Positions 1 through 35,749 of a stretch of 35,749 nucleotides of DNA are shown here, one piece after another; positions within the stretch are counted from its first letter, which is position 1, and every line of letters begins with the position of its first letter. Position numbers and translations under genes: made by a program. A model generated the notes under the pieces. The model saw nothing but the letters and a program-made list of their open reading frames with translations. It searched no databases and was not told the DNA's origin. The DNA comes from a virus (lineage: Duplodnaviria; Heunggongvirae; Uroviricota; Caudoviricetes), in the IMG/VR virus record IMGVR_UViG_2541047865_000003. The stretch is one strand, 5' to 3'.

Positions 1-1602
1 ATGTATAGAACTCACCGACAACACAGCCTGTTAAGCTCTGGTGGAGTGCCATCGTTTATTGGTGGGCTGGTGGTGTTTGTGTCGGCAGCGTTCAATGCAC
101 AAGCTGAAACCTGGTTCGATCCTGCCTTTTTCAAAGATGATCCCTCAATGGTGGCCGATTTGTCTCGTTTCGAAAAAGGACAAAAAATAACGCCAGGGGT
201 TTATCGTGTCGATATTGTTCTGAATCAGACAATTGTAGATACGCGCAACGTCAATTTTGTTGAGTTAACGCCAGAGAAGGGGATTGCCGCCTGTTTGACG
301 ACTGAAAGCCTGGATGCAATGGGTGTGAATACTGATGCGTTTCCGGCTTTTAAACAACTGGACAAACAAGCGTGTGCGCTATTGGCGGAGATTATTCCGG
401 ATGCCAGCGTAACTTTTAATGTGAATAAACTCCGTCTGGAAATTTCAGTACCGCAAATTGCTATAAAAAGTAACGCTCGTGGTTATGTCCCCCCTGAACG
501 TTGGGATGAAGGGATCAACGCGCTATTACTGGGATATTCATTTAGCGGGGCTAACAGTATTCATAGCAGCGCAGACAGTGATTCTGGCGACAGTTATTTT
601 CTGAATTTAAACAGTGGCGTTAATTTAGGCCCATGGAGATTGCGCAACAATTCAACATGGAGTCGTAGTAGTGGCCAAACCGCAGAATGGAAGAATCTCA
701 GCAGCTATTTGCAACGGGCGGTTATTCCTCTGAAAGGCGAACTGACCGTAGGTGATGATTATACTGCAGGCGATTTTTTCGATAGTGTCAGCTTTCGTGG
801 TGTGCAGCTGGCGTCAGATGACAACATGCTGCCAGACAGCCTGAAAGGGTTTGCGCCTGTGGTGCGTGGTATCGCCAAAAGCAATGCCCAGATAACGATT
901 AAGCAAAATGGTTACACCATTTACCAAACTTATGTATCGCCTGGTGCTTTTGAAATTAGTGATCTCTATTCCACGTCGTCGAGCGGTGATTTGTTAGTTG
1001 AAATCAAAGAAGCGGACGGCAGCGTCAATAGCTACAGCGTACCGTTTTCCAGCGTGCCATTACTCCAGCGTCAGGGGCGAATCAAATACGCGGTGACACT
1101 GGCGAAATACAGAACCAATAGTAATGAACAGCAGGAGAGCAAATTTGCCCAGGCCACGTTGCAGTGGGGCGGACCGTGGGGAACGACATGGTATGGTGGT
1201 GGACAATATGCTGAATATTACCGTGCCGCCATGTTTGGTCTGGGATTTAACCTTGGCGATTTCGGAGCAATTTCGTTCGATGCGACCCAGGCGAAGAGTA
1301 CGCTGGCAGACCAAAGCGAACATAAAGGTCAGTCATATCGTTTTCTGTATGCCAAAACGCTCAACCAATTGGGCACTAATTTTCAATTGATGGGCTATCG
1401 CTATTCGACGTCGGGTTTCTACACCCTTTCCGACACCATGTATAAACATATGGATGGCTACGAATTTAATGACGGTGATGATGAAGATACGCCGATGTGG
1501 TCGCGTTATTACAATTTGTTTTACACCAAACGTGGCAAACTGCAGGTCAATATCTCCCAGCAATTAGGCGAGTACGGTTCGTTTTATTTAAGTGGTAGCT
1601 GA
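1..1602 (+). CDS. Fimbrial outer-membrane usher protein (FimD/PapC family), 5' fragment; reading frame ends at the prophage junction
   Basis: 533-aa ORF with a signal-peptide-like N-terminus (…AAFNAQA) and FimD-like motifs (ADLSRFEKGQ, PGVYRVDI, RGYVPPERWDEGINA, LASDDNMLPDSLKGFAPV, GQSYRFLY, YRYSTSGFY, FYLSGS). Ushers are ~850 aa; here the frame stops at TGA 1600-1602, where Mu-end-like sequence begins. True start may lie upstream of the window. Confidence 0.8.
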   Translation: MYRTHRQHSLLSSGGVPSFIGGLVVFVSAAFNAQAETWFDPAFFKDDPSMVADLSRFEKGQKITPGVYRVDIVLNQTIVDTRNVNFVELTPEKGIAACLTTESLDAMGVNTDAFPAFKQLDKQACALLAEIIPDASVTFNVNKLRLEISVPQIAIKSNARGYVPPERWDEGINALLLGYSFSGANSIHSSADSDSGDSYFLNLNSGVNLGPWRLRNNSTWSRSSGQTAEWKNLSSYLQRAVIPLKGELTVGDDYTAGDFFDSVSFRGVQLASDDNMLPDSLKGFAPVVRGIAKSNAQITIKQNGYTIYQTYVSPGAFEISDLYSTSSSGDLLVEIKEADGSVNSYSVPFSSVPLLQRQGRIKYAVTLAKYRTNSNEQQESKFAQATLQWGGPWGTTWYGGGQYAEYYRAAMFGLGFNLGDFGAISFDATQAKSTLADQSEHKGQSYRFLYAKTLNQLGTNFQLMGYRYSTSGFYTLSDTMYKHMDGYEFNDGDDEDTPMWSRYYNLFYTKRGKLQVNISQQLGEYGSFYLSGS

Positions 1603-1677
1603 TGCGCCGCGCGATAAATGCGCCCATTTCCGTGAGATAAATGGCACCGCTGCGGCGTTTCAATATTTGAAAAAGAA
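1603..1677. repeat. Prophage terminal region with two direct repeats of a GATAAATG-containing motif (candidate transposase-binding sites)
   Basis: Begins 5'-TGATGCGCCGCGCGATAAATGCG, resembling the Mu right-end R1 consensus (TGAAGCGGCGCACGAAAAACGCG, recalled from memory). GATAAATG occurs at ~1613-1620 and ~1636-1643, about 23 bp apart; Mu end sites are ~22 bp units. Confidence 0.45.
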
Positions 1678-2259
1678 TTACAATCCTACCGCGTCATCCT
1701 TCCTCTGACTATCTACCGGAAAATACCGGTAGAGCGTCGATAACCCCACCCCGTAGATAATGGCCAGTTGCTGGCGGGTATGCCCCTTAGCCAATAGCCG
1801 CCCAATCTGTTCTCGCTCATGAGGCTTTAATGCGTTGGGCCTTCCACCTATGCGTCCCTGTGCTCTGGCTGCTGCTAACCCGGCCAATGTTCGTTCGACG
1901 ATCAACTCACGTTCCATTTCCGCCAGTGCCGACATCACATGGAAAAAGAAACGCCCCATGGCAGTGCTGGTATCAATACTGTCTGTTAAAGAGCGGAAGT
2001 GGGCACCGCGTTCATGTAACTCTGATATCAGTGCGATCAGGTTCTTAACGCTGCGCCCCAGCCTGTCCAGTTTCCACACGACCAGGGTGTCTCCGCTATT
2101 AACGCACTTTAAAGCGCGTTTCAGACCGGGGCGGCTGGCAACTTTTCCGCTCATACGGTCTTCAAAAATGCGGTCACAGTTTGCGCTTATGAGTGCATTA
2201 CGCTGTAAATCGCTGTTCTGGTCGATTGTTGATACGCGGATATAACCAATGACGGCCAT
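1678..2259 (-). CDS. gin: Serine-recombinase DNA invertase (Gin/Hin/Cin/Pin family)
   Basis: 193-aa product from MAVIGYIRVSTIDQNSDLQRNAL…, closely matching the Gin/Hin N-terminus (catalytic Ser in VST, C-terminal HTH …STLYRYF). ATG at 2257-2259 preceded by a GGAGGAG RBS. The track ORF 1678..2421 is an upstream in-frame extension. Confidence 0.85.
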   Translation of the reverse strand: MAVIGYIRVSTIDQNSDLQRNALISANCDRIFEDRMSGKVASRPGLKRALKCVNSGDTLVVWKLDRLGRSVKNLIALISELHERGAHFRSLTDSIDTSTAMGRFFFHVMSALAEMERELIVERTLAGLAAARAQGRIGGRPNALKPHEREQIGRLLAKGHTRQQLAIIYGVGLSTLYRYFPVDSQRKDDAVGL

Positions 2260-2321
2260 CAATTCTCCTCCTCTATGTCGCGGTGGGAGGATTTTTACAG
2301 ATTTCGCTATGTGTAACCGCT

Positions 2322-26845: not shown

Positions 26846-27379
26846 TTAATCCTGCCTTGGACAAGTCCAATAATCATTATCTGGCTCTGGTGAATAAGCT
26901 TTCAAACAACCTGCTCGCGGGGTCTTACCATCATCTGTCATAGGAACTTTTTCCTTATCAAGTTTCACGGTCAGGTCTCCACCAGGAACATCCGTTTTAT
27001 CGAAAAAAACAGCCTGACATGCTGATTTAGATATTTTCACTTCGTGGGCATTATTTGATATGAACAAATAACAATTATGACCAGAGGCTATGTAGTCACT
27101 TGGAATATTATTTTCGTCTTTAATATGAAACTGCACCGTTGTCACCGGGCGTTCGCTATCCTCGGATACTTCGACTTTTTCAAAACTGTCCGCGTACTTA
27201 TCCAGGCCGGGGAGTTGTTGGCGAATAAACGGTAATTCGCGATTTACAACCGGATTATCTGTTTCAACGCTAAAAACCGCGTGCTCCTTAGCTGTGGTGG
27301 ACGTATCAGCAGGATCGGTATTATCTCCACACCCAGATAAAACAAATATCAACGGTAAAAATAATTTGCGCATAGTCAT
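26846..27379 (-). CDS. Lipoprotein of unknown function (177 aa), AT-rich moron downstream of the repressor
   Basis: Signal peptide MTMRKLFLPLIFVLSGC with lipobox; mature part has four more Cys; AT-rich codons; RBS ~35 nt after the repressor stop on the same strand. Confidence 0.65.
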   Translation of the reverse strand: MTMRKLFLPLIFVLSGCGDNTDPADTSTTAKEHAVFSVETDNPVVNRELPFIRQQLPGLDKYADSFEKVEVSEDSERPVTTVQFHIKDENNIPSDYIASGHNCYLFISNNAHEVKISKSACQAVFFDKTDVPGGDLTVKLDKEKVPMTDDGKTPRAGCLKAYSPEPDNDYWTCPRQD

Positions 27380-27414: not shown

Positions 27415-27825
27415 TTAACCCGTATTTTTTAATCTTTCGAACGCTGCGGACAGCTCCTTAAGCTGTTTTTCCATATCAATCATTCGCTGTTTTTCCTCAG
27501 CGCCTCGCAGCAACTCTTTTCGCACCTCTGGCTCCAGTTGGTTGAGCAGCTCCAATAACTTCAGATCAGACTGGTTGAAATGCTGCTCCTGATTAGCTGG
27601 CTGTGCTTTCTCTACCCCAACAGCTTCCCCTTTACCAGTAAGTAGCCAATCTATTGATATGTTCAAATGGGTGCTTAGCGCAACAAGAGCCTCTGCATTA
27701 GGTTCTCTCTCTCCACGCAGATAGTTTTGAAGTGAGCGATATGGAATTTTTGACAAGTCTGACAATGCCTTAATTGTCAGACCCTTAGCATCCATCGCTT
27801 CGCGCAATCTCTCTTTTATACTCAT
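27415..27825 (-). CDS. Prophage repressor (XRE-family HTH)
   Basis: Start at MSIKERLREAMDAKGLTIKALSDLSKIPYRSLQNYLRGER… (HTH), C-terminal coiled-coil-like region. Divergent from the early operon across an ~88-bp promoter/operator region. Confidence 0.7.
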   Translation of the reverse strand: MSIKERLREAMDAKGLTIKALSDLSKIPYRSLQNYLRGEREPNAEALVALSTHLNISIDWLLTGKGEAVGVEKAQPANQEQHFNQSDLKLLELLNQLEPEVRKELLRGAEEKQRMIDMEKQLKELSAAFERLKNTG

Positions 27826-27841
27826 TTGAACATATCTCAAT

Positions 27842-27869
27842 TTGACATACCCGTTTGGGTGCGTACAAT
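27842..27869 (+). promoter_or_regulatory. Candidate sigma70 early promoter (TTGACA-16-TACAAT) with overlapping operator dyad
   Basis: TTGACA at ~27842-27847 and TACAAT at ~27864-27869, upstream of the Ner-like gene. Inverted repeat TTGGGT(N11)ACCCAA straddles the -10; a further ACCCAA lies ~20 bp downstream. Confidence 0.5.
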
Positions 27870-27913
27870 AGACCCAATAGAGTACATCATAACCCAACAG
27901 GAACACGGTGCAT

Positions 27914-28138
27914 ATGAACAAACAACAAGTTCGGGCACGGCTGGTTGAAAGAGGCAGTAGCTTGCGCCAGTTCGCGCTTAACGCGGGCTATGAGCCACGA
28001 ACAGTCACCCAGGCTGTCAGCCGCTGGGCAGGCAAAAGCGAACTTCCACGCGGTCGTTTGACTTATCGGATTTTGCGAGACCTTTCGGTCGCAATAGGCA
28101 AAGAAGTTACCCCCGGCATCCTCAAGGAGGCGTCATGA
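27914..28138 (+). CDS. Ner-like DNA-binding early regulator
   Basis: …LRQFALNAGYEPRTVTQAVSRWAGKSE… resembles the Mu Ner core; first gene of the early operon, divergent from the repressor. Confidence 0.65.
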   Translation: MNKQQVRARLVERGSSLRQFALNAGYEPRTVTQAVSRWAGKSELPRGRLTYRILRDLSVAIGKEVTPGILKEAS

Positions 28139-28440
28139 GTAAACCAAATACATCAAGCTCAGGTACCCGTATTTTGCGTGTCCTTAAGGCTTTACGCGGT
28201 CACGCTCTGAACGGTGTTTCTAACGGCGAGCTGGCGTCAGCTCTGGGCGAGTCCCCGGCGAATATCAATCGGGCGCTCAATACCCTTATCGAAGAAGGAC
28301 TGGCCCTGAAACTGGATAACGGGCGTTTTGCCCCAGGAGTCCAGCTCTTACAAATCGCCATGGCGCACAGTACCGAAATGGCGCGGGCGCAGGATCGTAT
28401 CAATGAAATTAACCAGCGTGTTATGGCTGGTAGTCGCTAA
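28135..28440 (+). CDS. Winged-helix/HTH DNA-binding protein (IclR-N-like), 101 aa
   Basis: …VSNGELASALGESPANINRALNTLIEEGLA… HTH-like segment; ATGA overlap with the Ner-like stop. Confidence 0.5.
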   Translation: MSKPNTSSSGTRILRVLKALRGHALNGVSNGELASALGESPANINRALNTLIEEGLALKLDNGRFAPGVQLLQIAMAHSTEMARAQDRINEINQRVMAGSR

Positions 28441-28449
28441 GGAGTTGAA

Positions 28450-29358
28450 ATGGGACGCACAAAATCACAACCAGTTGAACTAGTGGAAGATGCACCGCTG
28501 ACCGATGGTCTCAGTGTCAGTCTTAATGCTATGTCCGAACATCGCCTCGAAATCATGCAGCAGTTTGGTGATGGCCTGCCGTATGAACGTGATCGTATTG
28601 TCCATGAAACACGTTTTTATATGGCTCAGAGTGCTGAAGCCATGCTGGAGGCGGGTAAACGACTGGTAATTCTCAAAGAAAATGAACCACATGGTGACTT
28701 CATCGACATCGTTGAGTCTCAGTTGTCCCTGTCCAAACGTACCGCGCAGGTGATGATGCAAGCATCCCTCAAATATTTGTCTCCCAAGCTTGAACCAAAA
28801 GCGCAAGCGCTTGCGCTTTTGGGTAAAACAAAGCTGTTTGAGTTGATGACGGAAGATGACGAAGACCTCGTCGAATTAGCCGATGGCGGCACGATTGCTG
28901 GTATGAGCCTCGATGATATTGATCGCATGACAAGCCGCGAACTGAAAGCGGCCCTACGCGAAGCGCGTGAAACCAACGCAGCACAACAGCGCGTGCTTGC
29001 CGACAAAAACGAAAAAATCGACTCGCTCTCCACAAAACTGGAGAAGAAATCCCGTATCCAGCCGCCCAAGCCTGACGAAGAGGTGAAGAAGCTGCGTGCG
29101 GAAGTTACAGCGTTAGCGGTTGAGGCGGAATCTGCCATCGCCGTTCGACTGTCCAGCGCCTTTGAGACCCTGTGCGCATACTGTGCTGAAAATATGATTG
29201 ATACCCCCAGAGACTTTATGGCCGGTCTGGTCTGCCAGTTGGAAAGCACCGCGCGTAGCCTGCGCTCCACATTTGACCTGCCGGACGAGCCGACAGGCAA
29301 CGCCGCCCCTTCATGGCTGACTGACCCGACGCCAGAGATTAACGGGCAGGAGGCATAA
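28450..29358 (+). CDS. Hypothetical early protein (302 aa)
   Basis: Strong RBS (AAGGAG); acidic/coiled-coil-rich; sits between the regulators and the transposase, where Mu has no gene. Confidence 0.5.
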   Translation: MGRTKSQPVELVEDAPLTDGLSVSLNAMSEHRLEIMQQFGDGLPYERDRIVHETRFYMAQSAEAMLEAGKRLVILKENEPHGDFIDIVESQLSLSKRTAQVMMQASLKYLSPKLEPKAQALALLGKTKLFELMTEDDEDLVELADGGTIAGMSLDDIDRMTSRELKAALREARETNAAQQRVLADKNEKIDSLSTKLEKKSRIQPPKPDEEVKKLRAEVTALAVEAESAIAVRLSSAFETLCAYCAENMIDTPRDFMAGLVCQLESTARSLRSTFDLPDEPTGNAAPSWLTDPTPEINGQEA

Positions 29359-29361
29359 CCC

Positions 29362-31131
29362 ATGAGTGCCGCCCTGACTGAACGACTGGTTTATGTTGCC
29401 CGCGCGGCACGTGACGCGGGGCATGGTAAGCGTGGTGCGATATATGATGCCGCCTGCGCCGAACTGGGCATTTCCCGCGCCACCCTGCTGCGCAAGCTGA
29501 AGGAGGTATCAGTGACTGACAAACGTAAAAAACGCGCCGATGCCGGGCGCAGTGCCCTGAGCCGCGACGAAGCCGCGCTGATATCTGCCACGCTGCGCGA
29601 GGCCACCCGTAAGAACGGTAAGCGCCTGTATTCCATCGCGGATGCGGTGGAGACCCTGCGGTCAAACGGCTTTATCACTGCTGGCAGAACGGACGAGGCC
29701 ACAGGCGAGTTTTTCCCGCTGTCCGAGGACACCATCAGCCGCGCCCTGCGGAACTATGGTCTGCACCCGGAACAGCTTGACGCACCGGCCCCGTCGTCCG
29801 AGATGGCCAGCCTGCATCCCAATCACGTCTGGGAGATTGATGCCTCACTTTGTACGCTTTACTACCTGAGCAACGGCCATAAAGGGTTGCAGGTGATGGA
29901 CAGCTCGAAGTTCTACAAGAACAAGCCTGCCAACATCGCCCGCATCGCCAGTGACCGCGTGTGGAGTTACGAGATTACCGACCATACCAGCGGCTGGATT
30001 TACGTTGAGTACGTGATGGGTGCGGAATCTGGTGAGAACCTCTGTTCTGTGCTTATCAACGCCATGCAGGAGCGCGGCGGCGCGGACGTGCTGCACGGCG
30101 TGCCGAAAATACTCTACCTTGATCCCGGTTCGGCGAACACCGCTGGCATGACGAAAAACATGTGCCGCTCGCTGGGCATCAATCTGATAGCGCACAAGCC
30201 GCATAACGCCCGCGCCACCGGGCAGGTGGAAAAGGCCCGTGACATTATCGAACGTAAACTGGAGCCGGGTCTCAAATTCCAGCCGGTTCATAGCCTGGAC
30301 GAACTGAACGCGCTGGCGGTGAAATGGCGCAGCCACTTTAACGCCACGGCGGTCCACAGCCGCCACGGTAAAACCCGCACGGATATCTGGCTGAAGATTA
30401 CTGCTGACCAGCTGAAAAAAGCGCCATCCGTTGAGGTTTGCCGCGAACTGGCGGTGGCCGCACCGGAACTCCGTAAGGTCACACCAAAACTGCGCGTCTC
30501 GTTCCGGGGCAATGAGTTTGACGTTTCGACGGTACCGGGCGTACTGGTCGGCGAAAAACTGATGATTACCCGTAACCCGTGGCGCAGCGATGTGGCGCAG
30601 GTGGTGCTGACCGGTGAGGACGGTCACGAGACGTTCTTCCTGGTCGAAGAGGTCAGAAAGAACGAGTTCGGCTTTGCCGAAAGCGCGGCGGTATTTGGCG
30701 AAAACTACAAAGCCCTGCCGGAGACCCCGGCGCAGACGGCGGCAAAAGAAATCGAAGAGCTGGTTACGGGCACCGATAACGCCACCGATGCAGCTGCTGC
30801 ACGCAAGGCGAAGGCGCTGCCGTTCGGCGGGCGACTTGACCCGTACAAACATATCGACGACACCACGCTTCCGGCCTATATGCCGAAGCGCGGTCAGGCT
30901 TCAGACGTGCGCGGGCCGCGTATTGAGCAGCGTCCGCTGACCCATGTGGAGGCGGCGAAAGCCCTGCGCGAGAAGTTTGGCGCTAACGGCCATATCTGGA
31001 CGCCGGAACATTACCGCCAGTTAACGGCGCAGTACCCGGATGGCGTACCTGAAGCCGCGCTGGATGAGGTGATGGTTACCCTGACCACTCCGGCCCGCAA
31101 CAGCGTTATCAGCATCGTTAACGGTAACTGA
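29362..31131 (+). CDS. DDE transposase (Mu A-like)
   Basis: 589 aa with an N-terminal DNA-binding region and candidate DDE residues (WEIDAS, LYLDPGS, HNARATGQVEKAR); followed by the AAA+ ATPase partner; RBS GGAGG. Confidence 0.8.
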   Translation: MSAALTERLVYVARAARDAGHGKRGAIYDAACAELGISRATLLRKLKEVSVTDKRKKRADAGRSALSRDEAALISATLREATRKNGKRLYSIADAVETLRSNGFITAGRTDEATGEFFPLSEDTISRALRNYGLHPEQLDAPAPSSEMASLHPNHVWEIDASLCTLYYLSNGHKGLQVMDSSKFYKNKPANIARIASDRVWSYEITDHTSGWIYVEYVMGAESGENLCSVLINAMQERGGADVLHGVPKILYLDPGSANTAGMTKNMCRSLGINLIAHKPHNARATGQVEKARDIIERKLEPGLKFQPVHSLDELNALAVKWRSHFNATAVHSRHGKTRTDIWLKITADQLKKAPSVEVCRELAVAAPELRKVTPKLRVSFRGNEFDVSTVPGVLVGEKLMITRNPWRSDVAQVVLTGEDGHETFFLVEEVRKNEFGFAESAAVFGENYKALPETPAQTAAKEIEELVTGTDNATDAAAARKAKALPFGGRLDPYKHIDDTTLPAYMPKRGQASDVRGPRIEQRPLTHVEAAKALREKFGANGHIWTPEHYRQLTAQYPDGVPEAALDEVMVTLTTPARNSVISIVNGN

Positions 31132-31141
31132 GGAGGAAGGC

Positions 31142-32308
31142 ATGCTGGTACTGAAGCAACAACTGAAAGAGGCCCGCATCCCGCAGGCGGTGGTGGCAAG
31201 AGCCGTCGCCGTTTCCGAGGCCACGCTGGCCCAGATTGTGAACCATAACGAGTGGCCACGCACCAGCCCCGAAGAGGTACGCCAGCGTCTGGCGTTGTAT
31301 CTGGAAAGTAAGGGGATTGATACAGCGAAAAGTTTTGATGCTGCACAGGGCGCTGTCACGCCCCGTACAGCGGGTACTACCGATAAAACCAACCTCAGTG
31401 AGGAAGAGAACATGTTACTCAAAAAGCAGGTGTTATTTCCAGCAACCAAAAAAGCGTTTGGCCTTTTCCGTGATCCGTTCGCCGATGAAGCCATGCAGGG
31501 CGCGGACGATGTGTTCACCACGCCGGATATCCGCTACGTGCGTGAGGCGCTGTTCCAGACCGCCCGCCATGGTGGCTTTCTGGCGGTTATCGGCGAGTCC
31601 GGTGCGGGTAAATCCACGCTGCGCCGCGACCTGATTGAACGCGTCAACCGCGAGAACGCGCCGGTGATTGTAATTGAGCCATACATCATCGCCATGGAAG
31701 ACAACGACGTGAAGGGCAAAACCCTGAAGGCGGCAGCTATCGCCGAGGCCATCATCAGCACCATCGCGCCGCTGGAGAGTATCAAACGCAGCCAGGACGC
31801 CCGCTTCCGCCAGTTGCACCGCGTCCTGAAGGACAGCAGTCAGGCGGGTTTCAGCCACGTTCTGGTGATTGAGGAGGCCCACAGCCTTCCCATTCCGACG
31901 CTGAAGCACCTTAAACGCTTCTTCGAACTGGAGTCCGGCTTCAAAAAACTGCTGTCCATCGTGCTGATTGGCCAGCCTGAACTGGCGGACAAACTGTCCG
32001 AACGCAACATGGAAGTCCGTGAGGTCGTCCAGCGCTGCGAGGTGGTTGAATTGCTGCCGCTGGACAACAGCCTCGAAGAGTTTCTGACGTTCAAACTGCA
32101 ACGTGCCGGTAAGCAGCTGGCCGACATCATGGACGCCAGCGCAGTGGAAGCCATCCGCGCCCGTCTGAGCAATCTGGGTAGTAGCCGTAAAAGCATGGTC
32201 AGCCTGCTGTATCCGCTGGCCGTCAGTAACCTGGTGATAGCCGCCATGAATCTGGCTGCTGAAATCGGGGTTCCGCAGGTCAACGCCGACGTCGTCAAAG
32301 GAGTTTAA
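31142..32308 (+). CDS. Transposition ATPase / target-DNA activator (Mu B-like AAA+)
   Basis: Walker A GESGAGKST, Walker B VLVIEEAH, N-terminal HTH-like region; immediately downstream of the transposase. Confidence 0.8.
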   Translation: MLVLKQQLKEARIPQAVVARAVAVSEATLAQIVNHNEWPRTSPEEVRQRLALYLESKGIDTAKSFDAAQGAVTPRTAGTTDKTNLSEEENMLLKKQVLFPATKKAFGLFRDPFADEAMQGADDVFTTPDIRYVREALFQTARHGGFLAVIGESGAGKSTLRRDLIERVNRENAPVIVIEPYIIAMEDNDVKGKTLKAAAIAEAIISTIAPLESIKRSQDARFRQLHRVLKDSSQAGFSHVLVIEEAHSLPIPTLKHLKRFFELESGFKKLLSIVLIGQPELADKLSERNMEVREVVQRCEVVELLPLDNSLEEFLTFKLQRAGKQLADIMDASAVEAIRARLSNLGSSRKSMVSLLYPLAVSNLVIAAMNLAAEIGVPQVNADVVKGV

Positions 32309-32310
32309 TC

Positions 32311-32580
32311 ATGAAATCCATCGCCGATATCAACCAGCAGATGAACAAGGTGCAGTCCGCCATTATGGCGCTCAACGCCATGAACACTACCGTGCAGAGC
32401 GTCATGATTGCTGGCAGTAAGCCGGTTATCCGTATCGCCCGCAACGGGCACTGTGCCCGCCTGCTGGAGCAGGGCAAAGCGAGTTATACCCATGTTGGCC
32501 ATGACGGCTCAGGGCGCTTCCGTCAGGGCGTCTTTGAGTTGCATGGCTGCCGTATTACCTGGTCAGAGTCGTTACATTAA
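32311..32580 (+). CDS. Hypothetical early protein (89 aa)
   Basis: AGGAG RBS; starts 3 nt after the B stop; several His/Cys residues. Confidence 0.45.
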   Translation: MKSIADINQQMNKVQSAIMALNAMNTTVQSVMIAGSKPVIRIARNGHCARLLEQGKASYTHVGHDGSGRFRQGVFELHGCRITWSESLH

Positions 32581-32597
32581 CCATAAGGTGAACAGAG

Positions 32598-33209
32598 ATG
32601 AGCGAAGTAAATAAAGAAAACTACATGAAAGACCGCAAGGGGCGTCTGGTGCCGGTTGACCAGGTGTCTGACTATGACCTTGCGATGGACTCTTTCGTTA
32701 AAGAACAGGTTGTCGCCGCGAAGGTTAAACGCGATGAACTCAGTGACTTCAAGCGTCGTGCCTTTGACGAGTGCTATGCCTGGCTTGACCTTGTGGCCGA
32801 GAAGTACGGCAGAACGCGTGGCGGTGCCAAAGGCAACGTGACCTTCAGCAGCTTCGACGGTGCTCAGCAGATCACCATCCGCGTGCAGGAAACCCTGACC
32901 TTCGGGCCAGAGCTGCAGATTGCCAAAGACCTGATAGACGAGTGCGTCACCGAGTGGTCGGAAGGCGCGAACGCCAACCTGCGGGCCATCATCAGCGATG
33001 CTTTTCAGGTGGACAAAGAGGGCCAGCTTAATACCGGACGTATTCTTTCCCTGCGCCGCGTCAAGATTCAGGACGAGCGCTGGAACCGGGCAATGGAGGC
33101 CATATCGGAATCACTGCAGGTGGCAATGTCCAAAACCTATATTAATTTCCGGGAGAAAGATAAACACGGGAAGCTAATTAATATTCCGTTAGATATCGCT
33201 GCCATTTAA
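32598..33209 (+). CDS. Hypothetical early protein (203 aa; possibly the DUF3164 family of Mu-like prophages)
   Basis: Occupies the semi-essential early region; family assignment is from memory only. Confidence 0.45.
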   Translation: MSEVNKENYMKDRKGRLVPVDQVSDYDLAMDSFVKEQVVAAKVKRDELSDFKRRAFDECYAWLDLVAEKYGRTRGGAKGNVTFSSFDGAQQITIRVQETLTFGPELQIAKDLIDECVTEWSEGANANLRAIISDAFQVDKEGQLNTGRILSLRRVKIQDERWNRAMEAISESLQVAMSKTYINFREKDKHGKLINIPLDIAAI

Positions 33210-33287
33210 TTTTAATTCAATTTCTTTTTATTTCGGCGTCAGTGCCGTGGGCTTCTGCACGCCGAAAACAGCATTAAGGAATAAATC

Positions 33288-33476
33288 ATGTCCATCAAAT
33301 GTATCAACTGCCAGAAAGGTATCACCACCCTGAAGTTCAGCGACGCCAGCGTCATTTCCTCCGGTAAGTACCGCGTACCAGCCGTCCTCATCACGCTGGT
33401 ATGCCCACACTGTAGCCAGCATTACTACACCGAAGTCCCGGCCATGGAATTCATCCCTTGTGAGGCAAAGAAATGA
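33288..33476 (+). CDS. Com-like zinc-ribbon protein (62 aa)
   Basis: Two Cys pairs (CINC…CPHC). Pattern and length resemble Mu Com as recalled from memory (MKSIRCKNC…CPRCKRH). AAGGAA RBS; 3' end overlaps the next gene (ATGA). Confidence 0.5.
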   Translation: MSIKCINCQKGITTLKFSDASVISSGKYRVPAVLITLVCPHCSQHYYTEVPAMEFIPCEAKK

Positions 33477-33745
33477 TTACTGCAAAAGAAGCCGAAAAAC
33501 GGACCCGTGAAATTGTCGCGGAATATATCAGTGAATGTGGTTGTGAAAATCCCAACCATATCCGGCAGGTATTAATCAAATTAATCAGCATGGCTTCACA
33601 CGCCATCGTAGCAACAAATGGCCTAGATCAGGCTATTTACGTTCTTCACGCCACCAGTGACCACCTGAGAAAAATGCCGCCGCTGTACGAGCTGGAAATT
33701 ACTGAGGACGGCCACGTGAAAGTTATCGGCGTATCACGCCATTGA
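33473..33745 (+). CDS. Hypothetical protein (90 aa), translationally coupled to the Com-like gene
   Basis: ATGA overlap with the Com-like ORF; no recognisable motif. Confidence 0.45.
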   Translation: MITAKEAEKRTREIVAEYISECGCENPNHIRQVLIKLISMASHAIVATNGLDQAIYVLHATSDHLRKMPPLYELEITEDGHVKVIGVSRH

Positions 33746-33760
33746 TTTGGGGAAGATAAG

Positions 33761-34057
33761 ATGAAAGGCATGAAATTATATAACCGTTCGACGATCTACA
33801 ATCTGGCCCTCAAAACCTTCGGCCCAGAAGCTCAGGCTCTGAAGCTGATGGAAGAAGCTGCCGAACTGGCCGCTGCTGCTGCCCGCAACATGAACGGACT
33901 GGGCAATGAAGTTGATCTGGCAGGCGAACTGGCTGACGTTGAAATCATGATTGAACAGTTCCGCCTAAACGGGATGGGCCTGATGATTGATTTTCATAAG
34001 CAGAAAAAGCTGGAACGCCTTGCCGAACGCCTGGGGGTGACTTATGCCGCAGAATAA
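33761..34057 (+). CDS. MazG-like nucleotide pyrophosphohydrolase-domain protein (98 aa)
   Basis: EExxEL (MEEAAELAAAA) and downstream ELADVE acidic motif typical of the MazG/HisE-like fold; size matches stand-alone phage MazG-like proteins. Confidence 0.5.
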   Translation: MKGMKLYNRSTIYNLALKTFGPEAQALKLMEEAAELAAAAARNMNGLGNEVDLAGELADVEIMIEQFRLNGMGLMIDFHKQKKLERLAERLGVTYAAE

Positions 34058-34733
34058 TGAAAAGCTGCTGGAGAAGTTAAAAAAGCTACTTGCGCTGGCT
34101 AAATCCGATAACCCCCATGAAGCGGCACTGGCACTGCAACGCGCCCAGAAACTGATGCAGGCCTATAACATCACCCAGGCTGACCTCGCACTCAGTGATA
34201 TTGATGAAAGCGTCAGTAACTACTGGGCTGCAGGTAGCGTTAATCCGCCGCGTTATATGCTGGGTCTGCTGGATATTATCCAGGTGGCATTTGGCGTTAA
34301 GTCTATTATTCACTCCGGCTTTAAACCCGGCGTTGGCTTTTACGGTAATAAAGACCGGGTTGAACTGGCCTCATATACATGGGAGGTACTGGCCAGACAG
34401 TTAATCATGGCCCGTAAAAACTATATTCGACAGCAGAATAAAAGAATCAAAAACACGACCAAGACCAGCCGTGGTGACAAATTTGCCGAAGGGTGGGTTC
34501 TGGCCGTGCGTAGCGAGGTTCATTTATTTGCTATGTCCCGCGAAGAACGGGAGCTGGCAAACCTCTGGCTTGAACAAAAATACCCTGATTCAGGAACAAC
34601 CTCTGGCCGCAAAGCCGGTAAATCCCGTGACGCGGACATGTCCCGCCACATCGGTTACAGAGAGGGAGAAAACGTCCGTCTACATCAGCCTGTCAGCGGG
34701 CAGGAACAGCGGAAGCTGGGGAGTGGCTTATGA
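34044..34733 (+). CDS. Hypothetical early protein (229 aa)
   Basis: Helical N-terminus (LLEKLKKLLALAKSDNPHEAALALQRAQKLM) and basic C-terminal region; GGGGGTGA RBS. Confidence 0.45.
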   Translation: MPQNNEKLLEKLKKLLALAKSDNPHEAALALQRAQKLMQAYNITQADLALSDIDESVSNYWAAGSVNPPRYMLGLLDIIQVAFGVKSIIHSGFKPGVGFYGNKDRVELASYTWEVLARQLIMARKNYIRQQNKRIKNTTKTSRGDKFAEGWVLAVRSEVHLFAMSREERELANLWLEQKYPDSGTTSGRKAGKSRDADMSRHIGYREGENVRLHQPVSGQEQRKLGSGL

Positions 34734-34945
34734 TGGCTGAATCAATTGTATGTGCCTTGTTCTGGTATGGTCTCGTGGGGTGGTGTACTGCTGAACTGCA
34801 CCGCCGTTCAGGGTTTTACTCACGTTACAGCGGTACCGGACACTGGATCAGTTGGGCCGTTATGTTCCTGTGCTGGCCTGTCGCGCTTCCTTTATATGTC
34901 GACTATATCGGTGGCGCAGGTAAAAGGAGTGGCAATGATGACTAA
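34730..34945 (+). CDS. Small hydrophobic protein (71 aa, two predicted TM helices)
   Basis: ATGATG overlap with the upstream stop; Trp-rich hydrophobic segments. Confidence 0.4.
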   Translation: MMAESIVCALFWYGLVGWCTAELHRRSGFYSRYSGTGHWISWAVMFLCWPVALPLYVDYIGGAGKRSGNDD

Positions 34946-35363
34946 GCAGCGTCTTATTCAACTCATTCATATTGCCCGCAGCGACCTCCAGATGGATGAG
35001 GACACCTACCGCCAGATGCTACAGGGGCTGACCGGCAAAGCCTCAACCAAAGGGATGGATACCCCACAGCTAAACCGCGTGCTGGAATCAATGAAAAAGA
35101 AAGGCTTTCGCATTAAGCCTGCCGGGAAAGCCAAGTCCGGCTTACCGCTCGACAGCCATCCGCAGTCAAAGAAAATCCGTGCGCTATGGCTTGAAATGGC
35201 TGCCGCAGGCATCGTCCGTGACAGTTCAGAGCAGGCGCTGGCGCTGTGGGTTAAACGGGAAACCGGCATCAGCGCGTTACGCTGGCTCAGCAATGAGCAG
35301 GCAAGTAGCGTGATTGAGAAACTGAAGAAGTGGCAGCGCAGAGCTGCGGGAGTGAAGCAATGA
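34935..35363 (+). CDS. GemA-like regulatory protein (Mu gp16 family)
   Basis: Start MMTKQRLIQLIHIARSDLQMDEDTYRQML…, preceded by an AAAGGAG RBS; located immediately before the Mor-like gene as in Mu. Confidence 0.55.
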   Translation: MMTKQRLIQLIHIARSDLQMDEDTYRQMLQGLTGKASTKGMDTPQLNRVLESMKKKGFRIKPAGKAKSGLPLDSHPQSKKIRALWLEMAAAGIVRDSSEQALALWVKRETGISALRWLSNEQASSVIEKLKKWQRRAAGVKQ

Positions 35364-35749
35364 GCGACCTGAATCAGTTTCGTAGTAAAGGGCCGGAACT
35401 GTTGGTGGAACTGGCACAGCATACCTCTGAGACTGTCCGCGAGATTATTGATATCGAACCCGCAGTTGCCGACCAGATTGGTCAGGCCGTCGCGAACCGC
35501 ATGATGCAGGTCTGGGGTGGGCAAAACGTCTATTTTCCGATGGGCATGGTCTGGAAGGTCAGCCAGCGCGACCGGGAAATTTTCCTGGAGTTTGACGGGC
35601 GCAACCATCACGAACTGGCCCGCAAATTTGGTGTTTCACTACAGTGGGTTTACAGCGTGGTGAAGCGGGTCAGAAAAGAAGAACTGGATCGGATGCAGGG
35701 CAAACTGTTTGATGGCGAACCTGATGCCGATACAGGGAAAAAGGAGTAA
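35360..35749 (+). CDS. Mor/C-family transcription activator (middle operon regulator-like)
   Basis: 129 aa from MSDLNQFRSKG…; C-terminal HTH (HELARKFGVSLQWVYSVVKRVRK) and central GGQNVYFP motif parallel Mu Mor (GGGQVYIP … NTVYKAIRR, from memory); ATGA overlap with the GemA-like stop. Confidence 0.65.
   Translation: MSDLNQFRSKGPELLVELAQHTSETVREIIDIEPAVADQIGQAVANRMMQVWGGQNVYFPMGMVWKVSQRDREIFLEFDGRNHHELARKFGVSLQWVYSVVKRVRKEELDRMQGKLFDGEPDADTGKKE

Follow-up and report, generated by a model that had tools for sequence, protein, structure and literature searches.

A pair of 23-bp putative transposase sites at one end of a probable BcepMu-type prophage in the Escherichia coli elfC gene

The window analysed here, a stretch of 35,749 nucleotides recorded in IMG/VR as a virus of the Caudoviricetes (IMGVR_UViG_2541047865_000003), opens within a bacterial gene and then passes into a prophage. 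A first-pass annotation, made from the letters alone, had pointed to two copies of a short motif just inside this end of the element and likened them to the R1/R2 transposase-binding units of phage Mu. This raises the question of what these repeats are, where the element begins, and to which kind of transposable phage its end belongs. The comparisons described below suggest, with a probability that we put at about 0.85, that positions 1600-1645 form one end of a BcepMu-type transposable prophage of ~34.3 kb inserted in elfC, which carries paired 23-bp putative transposase sites at this end and an inverted pair at the other.

Two exact copies of the 8-mer GATAAATG stand on the plus strand at 1613-1620 and 1636-1643, 23 bp apart, enclosed by a 14-nt direct repeat (CCGCGCGATAAATG at 1607-1620 and CCGTGAGATAAATG at 1630-1643; 12/14 identity, start-to-start distance 23). 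A period scan of this end has its maximum at 23 (13/22), and no third core was found in phase at the window end. On its own the in-window repeat is statistically weak: GATAAATG occurs four times in the window against 0.74 expected, some 19 distinct exact 8-mer direct repeats with offsets of 15-35 nt are present in the window, and 12/14 repeats of the 1607/1630 kind are found in 5 of 1190 60-nt window tiles. Its weight comes from its position and from its conservation among relatives.

Two further repeats were seen in the window. The sequence TTTCCGGTAGATA at 1710-1722, within the gin coding sequence, repeats the left portion of unit 2 in inverted orientation (1627-1639; TTTCCGTGAGATA and TATCTACCGGAAA, 85% complementary); at 111-123 nt from the terminus it recalls an inverted third site, though it may reflect coding constraint. 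An 11-mer direct repeat, GCTGTTTTTCC, stands at 27462-27472 and 27486-27496 (24-nt offset) in the repressor-gene region (27415-27921, minus strand).

The start of the element was located from both sides of the junction. The 5' portion of elfC stands at the start of the window, and many E. coli genomes are identical to it over positions 1-1599; the uninterrupted gene then reads GGTAGC followed by CAGCAAAC, whereas the window instead reads TGATGCGCCGCGCGATAAATGCGCCCATTTCCGTGAGATAAATGGCACC after GGTAGC. The elfC insertion itself was found in no complete E. coli genome, and the six contigs listed for the identical transposase carry it at other sites. Conversely, homology to 24 related E. coli prophage copies, which reside at different loci beside different flanking genes, begins at 1598-1600 and runs inward only. 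Since elfC identity extends through 1599 and the homology of the relatives starts at 1598-1600, the first base of the element is 1600. The element begins TGATG, with its second TG at 1603, where the first-pass annotation had placed the terminus; that placement has to be given up in favour of the TGA at 1600, while the two motif copies about 23 bp apart that it had described inside the prophage end are present, as a 12/14 direct repeat with a spacing of 23. The ELF fimbrial usher gene, elfC, is inactivated by the prophage insertion. The terminal TGA also serves as the stop codon of the cut-off elfC reading frame (1..1602). The features at this junction and in the early region are collected in Table 1.

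Table 1. Features of the prophage end in elfC and of the neighbouring early genes, in window coordinates
Feature	Position	Strand	Remarks
Last 6 bp of elfC, GGTAGC	1594..1599	+	predicted left copy of 6-bp target-site duplication
Prophage terminus 5'-TGA (TG...CA tip)	1600..1602	+	homology to relatives at other chromosomal sites starts here
Terminal 23-bp unit 1, TGATGCGCCGCGCGATAAATGCG	1600..1622	+	core GCGATAAAT at 1611-1619, positions 12-20 from terminus
Inner 23-bp unit 2, CCCATTTCCGTGAGATAAATGGC	1623..1645	+	core GAGATAAAT at 1634-1642, positions 35-43 from terminus
IclR/Ner-like HTH protein	28135-28440	+	
DUF3102 protein	28450-29358	+	
DDE (rve) transposase TnpA, 589 aa	29362..31131	+	Pfam rve; candidate repeat-binding protein
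AAA+ (ExeA/AAA_22) ATPase	31142..32308	+	Pfam AAA_22, 3e-20; counterpart of BcepMu gp08, Mu B and Tn552 p271

After the terminus come a gin-type invertase gene (1678-2262, minus strand), an invertible tail-fibre region, tail, head and lysis genes on the minus strand, and a repressor gene; on the plus strand, from 28.1 kb, the genes for the IclR/Ner-like HTH protein, the DUF3102 protein, the rve transposase and the AAA_22 ATPase are followed by other early genes, GemA and Mor. The late genes span ~2.2-25.8 kb of the minus strand, and the early genes begin on the plus strand at 28.1 kb. The end under study, beside the gin invertase and the tail-fibre genes, is the right end in BcepMu numbering. 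The transposase, TnpA, is 68% identical over 581 aa to BcepMu TnpA (gp09), which is annotated as 'Tn552/IS1604 rve transposase'. Besides rve, Pfam returns a weak HTH_8 match at aa 30-48; no Mu-specific Pfam domain was found in TnpA, and BLASTP gave no similarity to MuA (best E 3.1). Its next relatives are IS481-family transposases at ~25% identity, and sequence comparison with solved structures yields weak matches to retroviral-integrase cores only. The annotation of the ATPase counterpart is 'DNA transposition protein' in BcepMu, and in relatives it is 'ExeA family'.

With the stop codon of Mor the window comes to its end, leaving out the last 161 nt before the far terminus, and the far end of the window prophage was read from proxies, namely Escherichia phage Phi06_2974 B and six chromosomal loci whose transposase is identical. 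Phi06_2974 B matches window 28000-35749 (7.75 kb) at 100% identity and extends further; its far end, read inward, is TGATTAGACTTGAGATAAATGACAGGGGATAAGTGAGATAATTATGGGAAG, with cores in register with those of the near end. The six loci have the same far end joined to six different flanks, and in all of these proxies it reads TGATTAGACTTGAGATAAATG...GTGAGATAATT in the same register (60-mer TGATTAGACTTGAGATAAATGACAGGGGATAAGTGAGATAATTATGGGAAGTACTGGGTC). The first-pass annotation had suggested looking for inverted copies of the motif beyond the window, and the pair is there, inverted and in register, in Phi06_2974 B and the six loci; every close relative whose sequence extends to the other end has inverted cores there, at 12-20 and 35-43 from a TGA terminus. 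Common to the near and far ends are TGAT, G(C/A)GATAAAT at 12-20 and GAGATAA(A/T)T at 35-43, and overall 26 of the first 46 nt are identical, concentrated in the cores.

The far end has further features of its own. In locus L003 a second direct repeat, ATGGGAAGTACTGG and ATGGGAAGAGACTGG, with some 20 nt between its copies, follows immediately inside unit 2 (28441-28406, read inward; 44-79 from the far terminus), and ends of the far-end class keep a 'GGGA' behind their second core. This second repeat could extend the site, or be a pac or an accessory site.

Complete relatives confirm that such ends occur in pairs. In four complete E. coli prophages the strict pattern TGA-N8-GMGATAWWT-N14-GMGATAWWT is found once per strand per locus of 41-45 kb, and the paired matches delimit elements of 30.2-35.6 kb. 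All four are flanked by 6-bp target duplications (CGTAAT, AATATC, CGTTGC and GCGCAT), and a 6-bp duplication is also present in the locus pair L033/L037. From the duplications in the four complete relatives, GGTAGC is predicted on either side of the window copy, its right copy lying beyond the window, and the far junction is predicted to read ...TCA followed by GGTAGCCAGCAAAC, or more fully ...CTAATCA followed by GGTAGCCAGCAAACTT.

Two deposited records came up alongside these prophages. NZ_CP132021.1 (40,540 bp), deposited as a plasmid of E. coli JCH8249, holds a whole prophage of BcepMu type (matches H40 and H75), whose transposase occupies 30927-32693. Both in this record and in the chromosome of the same strain, NZ_CP132020.1, the matching stretch bears the annotation of a carbamate-kinase gene. 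The plasmid record may result from faulty assembly, or may represent the prophage in a replicating or excised state. Klebsiella phage KP12 clone KP12_2 (OM835952.1), filed under Vequintavirinae, is 97% identical to the early region of the window and has BcepMu-type gene content; the strict end motif is absent from both of its ends, and it looks like a co-assembled prophage contig.

BcepMu itself reportedly has 23-bp imperfect direct repeats at its genome ends. Read here, its two ends are TGAAGAGAGGTGAGATATTTCC...GCGCGATATTTCC and TGAAGCGCGGCGCGATATTTCA...GCGCGATAAATTC, with cores at the window offsets. Like the window prophage, BcepMu has a TGA terminus, two direct repeats per end with a period of 23 bp, inverted between the ends, and the core GMGATAWWT at 12-20 and 35-43; its transposase is the 68% identical protein described above, with an adjoining AAA ATPase, and its early/late order is the same but mirrored. 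The two differ in host (Burkholderia as against E. coli here), in the core, which is mostly GATAAAT in the window prophage and GATATTT in BcepMu, and in the neighbourhood of the end, where the window has the gin invertase and an invertible tail-fibre segment and BcepMu has an acyltransferase; outside the cores their ends have little in common. The BcepMu kind is known from E. coli also through phage PhiKM, which is filed under Bcepmuvirus. Pseudomonas phage B3, recorded under the genus Beetrevirus, shows the same architecture at its ends (TGAGAGAGAGTGAGAAATAC...GCGCGATAAAG and TGTAGCGCGGCGCGAAATTTG...GCGCAATAAATG) and has ~68% DNA identity to the window over the transposase gene region, but its cores are more degenerate (GAAAT) and one of its ends has a 22-bp period.

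These observations place the window end among those of BcepMu type: the window has TG(A) at the junction, the 23-bp pair, a TnpA orthologue with its ATPase, and an early region inverted in the manner reported for BcepMu relative to Mu (PMC3091646), while its relatives and proxies have the inverted far-end pair, many insertion sites and the 6-bp duplication. For BcepMu and phiE255, "23-bp imperfect direct repeats" have been proposed as transposase sites (Ronning et al. 2010, PMC2920897), so that the kind of feature is known and the window repeats appear to be its orthologue.

The comparison can be carried beyond phages, to the transposon Tn552, whose ends we took from S. aureus pMW2 (NC_005011.1, 4872-11417). 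Each Tn552 end (TGTCACTTTACTCGATATATGAGAATGACTTTACCTAATAAATGAGAAAA) consists of two adjacent 23-bp direct repeats, with internal identities of 17/22 and 15/22, and the Tn552 transposase is said to footprint two 23-bp repeats per end. The cores of Tn552, CGATATATG at 13-21 and TAATAAATG at 36-44, agree in offset with CGATAAATG and AGATAAATG of the window end. In common with the window phage, Tn552 has a TG tip, a 6-bp target duplication (in the phage, seen in its relatives) and a gene pair of transposase and AAA ATPase. pMW2 carries a complete Tn552, in which p480 is frameshifted (Shearer et al., PMC3276174), and 6 bp is the length of the published Tn552 target duplications (PMC3276174). The KS10 paper describes BcepMu-type transposases as related to Tn552 and their phages as having TG...CA termini (PMC2628397). 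The two transposases both find their best match in the NCBIfam IS481-like model, below its cutoff (1e-18 for TnpA; 1e-11 and 3e-13 for Tn552), direct BLASTP between them is not significant (E 0.023 over 20 aa), and the window ATPase and Tn552 p271 are weakly similar (E 0.002). Tn552 is a 6.5-kb transposon and not a phage, with inverted repeats of ~120 bp, whereas the two phage ends are only 26/46 alike. Sequence-level homology of the Tn552 and phage ends was considered and rejected: their identity of 21/46 is not above background, and the likeness is thus architectural.

How far these ends are conserved was assessed in two samples of different design. The IMG/VR sample comprised 80 loci picked only by transposase homology, at 70-100% identity. 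The strict pattern is present in all 11 of its loci that have a full 10 kb downstream, always with inward polarity, 4.3-6.4 kb past tnpA and next to flanks that are all different; no further matches to the end pattern were found in these 11 loci at up to 2 mismatches. Among relatives the spacer between the cores (positions 21-33) varies freely while the cores are unchanged, which amounts to a phylogenetic footprint.

In the second sample, made up of one genome per species, a scan with the strict end pattern returned at least 120 sites in other genomes, mostly of Beta- and Gammaproteobacteria, against roughly 17 chance matches estimated from the information content; around a dozen, such as those in Bacteroidota and in a Methanosarcina tandem repeat, look like chance. 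Among the matches listed, the 3.5 kb on the inward side encode homologues of BcepMu or window phage proteins in 56 of 106 cases, and those on the outward side in 0 of 101. The pattern-free positions 4-11 are conserved among the ends from the matches listed, and outside the terminus, at positions -10 to -1, no conservation was found in the 112 ends among the matches listed. The offset of the unit 1 core, 12-20, is kept in BcepMu, B3, Tn552 and more than 100 other ends, a figure to be read with the reservation that the strict pattern presets the TGA and the core columns, which makes their conservation in the scan partly circular; the circularity is eased by the transposase-chosen IMG/VR sample and by the four complete prophages.

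Within the collected ends we noted two classes with peculiarities of their own. In 54 GC-rich-tip (class-A) ends a short T-run is kept ~14-17 nt past the second core, at positions ~57-61 from the terminus; the window has GTTTC there (~1656-1660). Many ends of the purine-rich class (TGAnnnGAnnTGAGATAAAT...), among them those of loci L017, L077, L093, L101, L109, L118 and L124, which are shorter than an element, have on their inward side homologues of BcepMu gp31 (Mu G) and gp30 (Mu F) and of the portal protein, all of them directed toward the terminus. Such an order of modules is unlike that of BcepMu and the window, where Mor adjoins this class of end.

Are the repeats, then, divergent R1/R2 att sites of a MuA-type system? 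For MuA sites the 22-bp consensus is YGTTTCAYTNNAARYRCGAAAR, consistent with Mu L1 and R2 as read here. At up to 3 mismatches it has no match at the window end (1600-1700); in the R1 register 12 of its 20 specified positions agree, the GTTTCA/CGAAA half-sites of Mu are absent from the window end, and the period is 23 as against 22 in the Mu right end, by the same period scan. Mu has three asymmetric sites per end and an enhancer, with a 5-bp stagger (PMC3562280), whereas the window phage type has two symmetric sites per end at identical offsets, and four complete relatives have a target duplication of 6 bp rather than 5. The repeats accordingly fall outside the Mu att sites on consensus, period, number of sites, duplication length and transposase. 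There is nonetheless a resemblance that speaks for a MuA-type reading: the first 23 nt of the element, TGATGCGCCGCGCGATAAATGCG, agree with the Mu right-end tip TGAAGCGGCGCACGAAAAACGCG (locus L209, read inward) at 18 of 23 positions, a score that no other of the 71,452 window positions equals (runner-up 16); Mu R2 contains the identical 11-mer CGATAAATGCG; and Mu attR, like the window end, has two adjacent sites counted from a TG tip and is the gin-proximal end. With the consensus unmatched, the CGAAA half-site missing, and a TnpA with neither BLASTP likeness to MuA nor Mu-specific Pfam domains, we consider this reading very improbable. Of the likeness to Mu R1/R2 that the first-pass annotation had seen in spacing and position, the two adjacent sites starting from the tip survive; the spacing does not, being 23, as in BcepMu and Tn552, and not 22. 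Its statement that the motif differs from the Mu consensus agrees with the absence of a match at up to 3 mismatches, yet the 18/23 identity of the tip makes the motif less foreign to Mu than it had held. Its broader proposal, candidate transposase sites of non-MuA specificity just inside the terminus, finds support in the inverted far-end pair and in a TnpA that is like that of BcepMu and not like MuA. The only match to the Mu consensus in the window at up to 3 mismatches is AGTTTCATATTAAAGACGAAAA at 27111-27132 on the minus strand, in the reading frame 26846-27379 beside the repressor gene; it is probably a chance match, as 6 of 100 shuffles give at least one.

A different possibility is that the cores are genuine end elements read by another protein, be it the IclR/Ner-like HTH protein, the DUF3102 protein, a host nucleoid protein or the packaging machinery acting at a pac site. 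Packaging in BcepMu-type phages does begin at a pac site, located at one end (PMC2920897), and the A/T-rich core could suit a bending protein. The motif, however, stands at both ends, inverted and at a fixed distance from the cleaved TG tip, which fits a transposase and not a one-ended pac site, and BcepMu convention assigns pac to the Mor end, not to the window end (PMC2920897); both points make a pac-only role unlikely. Tn552, moreover, has the same core at the same offsets without any phage accessory proteins, and we hold a reader other than the transposase to be improbable. It is scarcely likely at all that the repeat arose by chance, or that it belongs to the transcription terminator of gin, a gene whose end is at 1678. 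In favour of these readings, the window has many short direct repeats of a similar kind, and its minus strand carries a weak terminator-like hairpin (1657-1645) whose T-tract falls within unit 2. Against them, this hairpin has 5 pairs, the count of terminator-like sites is 2 where 0.9 would be expected, and RNA folding gives a z-score of -0.9. The motif is kept in BcepMu, B3 and Tn552, which have no gin at the corresponding end, and recurs at the far end next to Mor. We therefore rejected the gin terminator, which cannot account for the motif at ends that lack gin or adjoin Mor.

Returning to the preferred reading, paired transposase sites at the ends of a BcepMu-type prophage, we infer TnpA as the binder, along with the following stoichiometry and chemistry. 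One TnpA protomer would bind each 23-bp unit through its N-terminal helix-turn-helix region; the four bound sites would be brought together in a tetramer-type transpososome; and the terminal ...TCA-3' ends would be nicked and joined to the target with a 6-bp stagger, with help from the adjacent AAA+ ATPase. An AF2 model of TnpA, built from a 27-sequence alignment, is poor (mean pLDDT 58), so that the DNA-binding-domain structure it gives is suggestive. In it the N-terminal ~140 aa form two helical subdomains of DNA-binding type (aa 3-49 and 68-132, pLDDT 70-86), and a beta-barrel follows the core. Foldseek with this model ranked CAST TnsB, IS21 IstA, Tn7 TnsB and retroviral integrases highest, all at low TM (~0.12 for TnsB and IstA), a suggestive result at most. 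The modelled layout may thus be compatible with a TnsB/MuA-like protein having two DNA-binding domains, a DDE core and a beta-barrel.

What the repeats mean is modest. Judged by their counterparts, they appear real but ordinary, the likely orthologue of the repeats published for BcepMu and phiE255; as an expected cis-acting site of a known phage family, they leave the understanding of that family unchanged. Small additions are the core offsets and 23-bp period shared with Tn552, the resemblance to the Mu right-end tip, and the 6-bp duplication that sets these phages apart from Mu. Tn552, BcepMu- and B3-type phages and the Mu right end all have a TG tip followed at ~14-20 by an A/T-rich core, (G)ATAWWT(G), which recurs one 22/23-bp period inward, and it is conceivable, though doubtful, that these ends are homologous by descent or through exchange of end modules, and not convergent. 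If so, the R1-R2 part of Mu attR and Tn552/IS481-like ends would be homologous although their transposases are no longer recognisably similar, and in E. coli the MuA-type and BcepMu-type systems might to some extent recognise each other's ends. For the element itself, the prophage boundary is fixed at window position 1600 and the assignment is to BcepMu type, not to Mu. For the family, the compact end signature TGA-N8-GMGATAWWT-N14-GMGATAWWT is useful for drawing prophage boundaries: with it, ends of transposable prophages were found in over 100 genomes of Beta- and Gammaproteobacteria, in the correct polarity.
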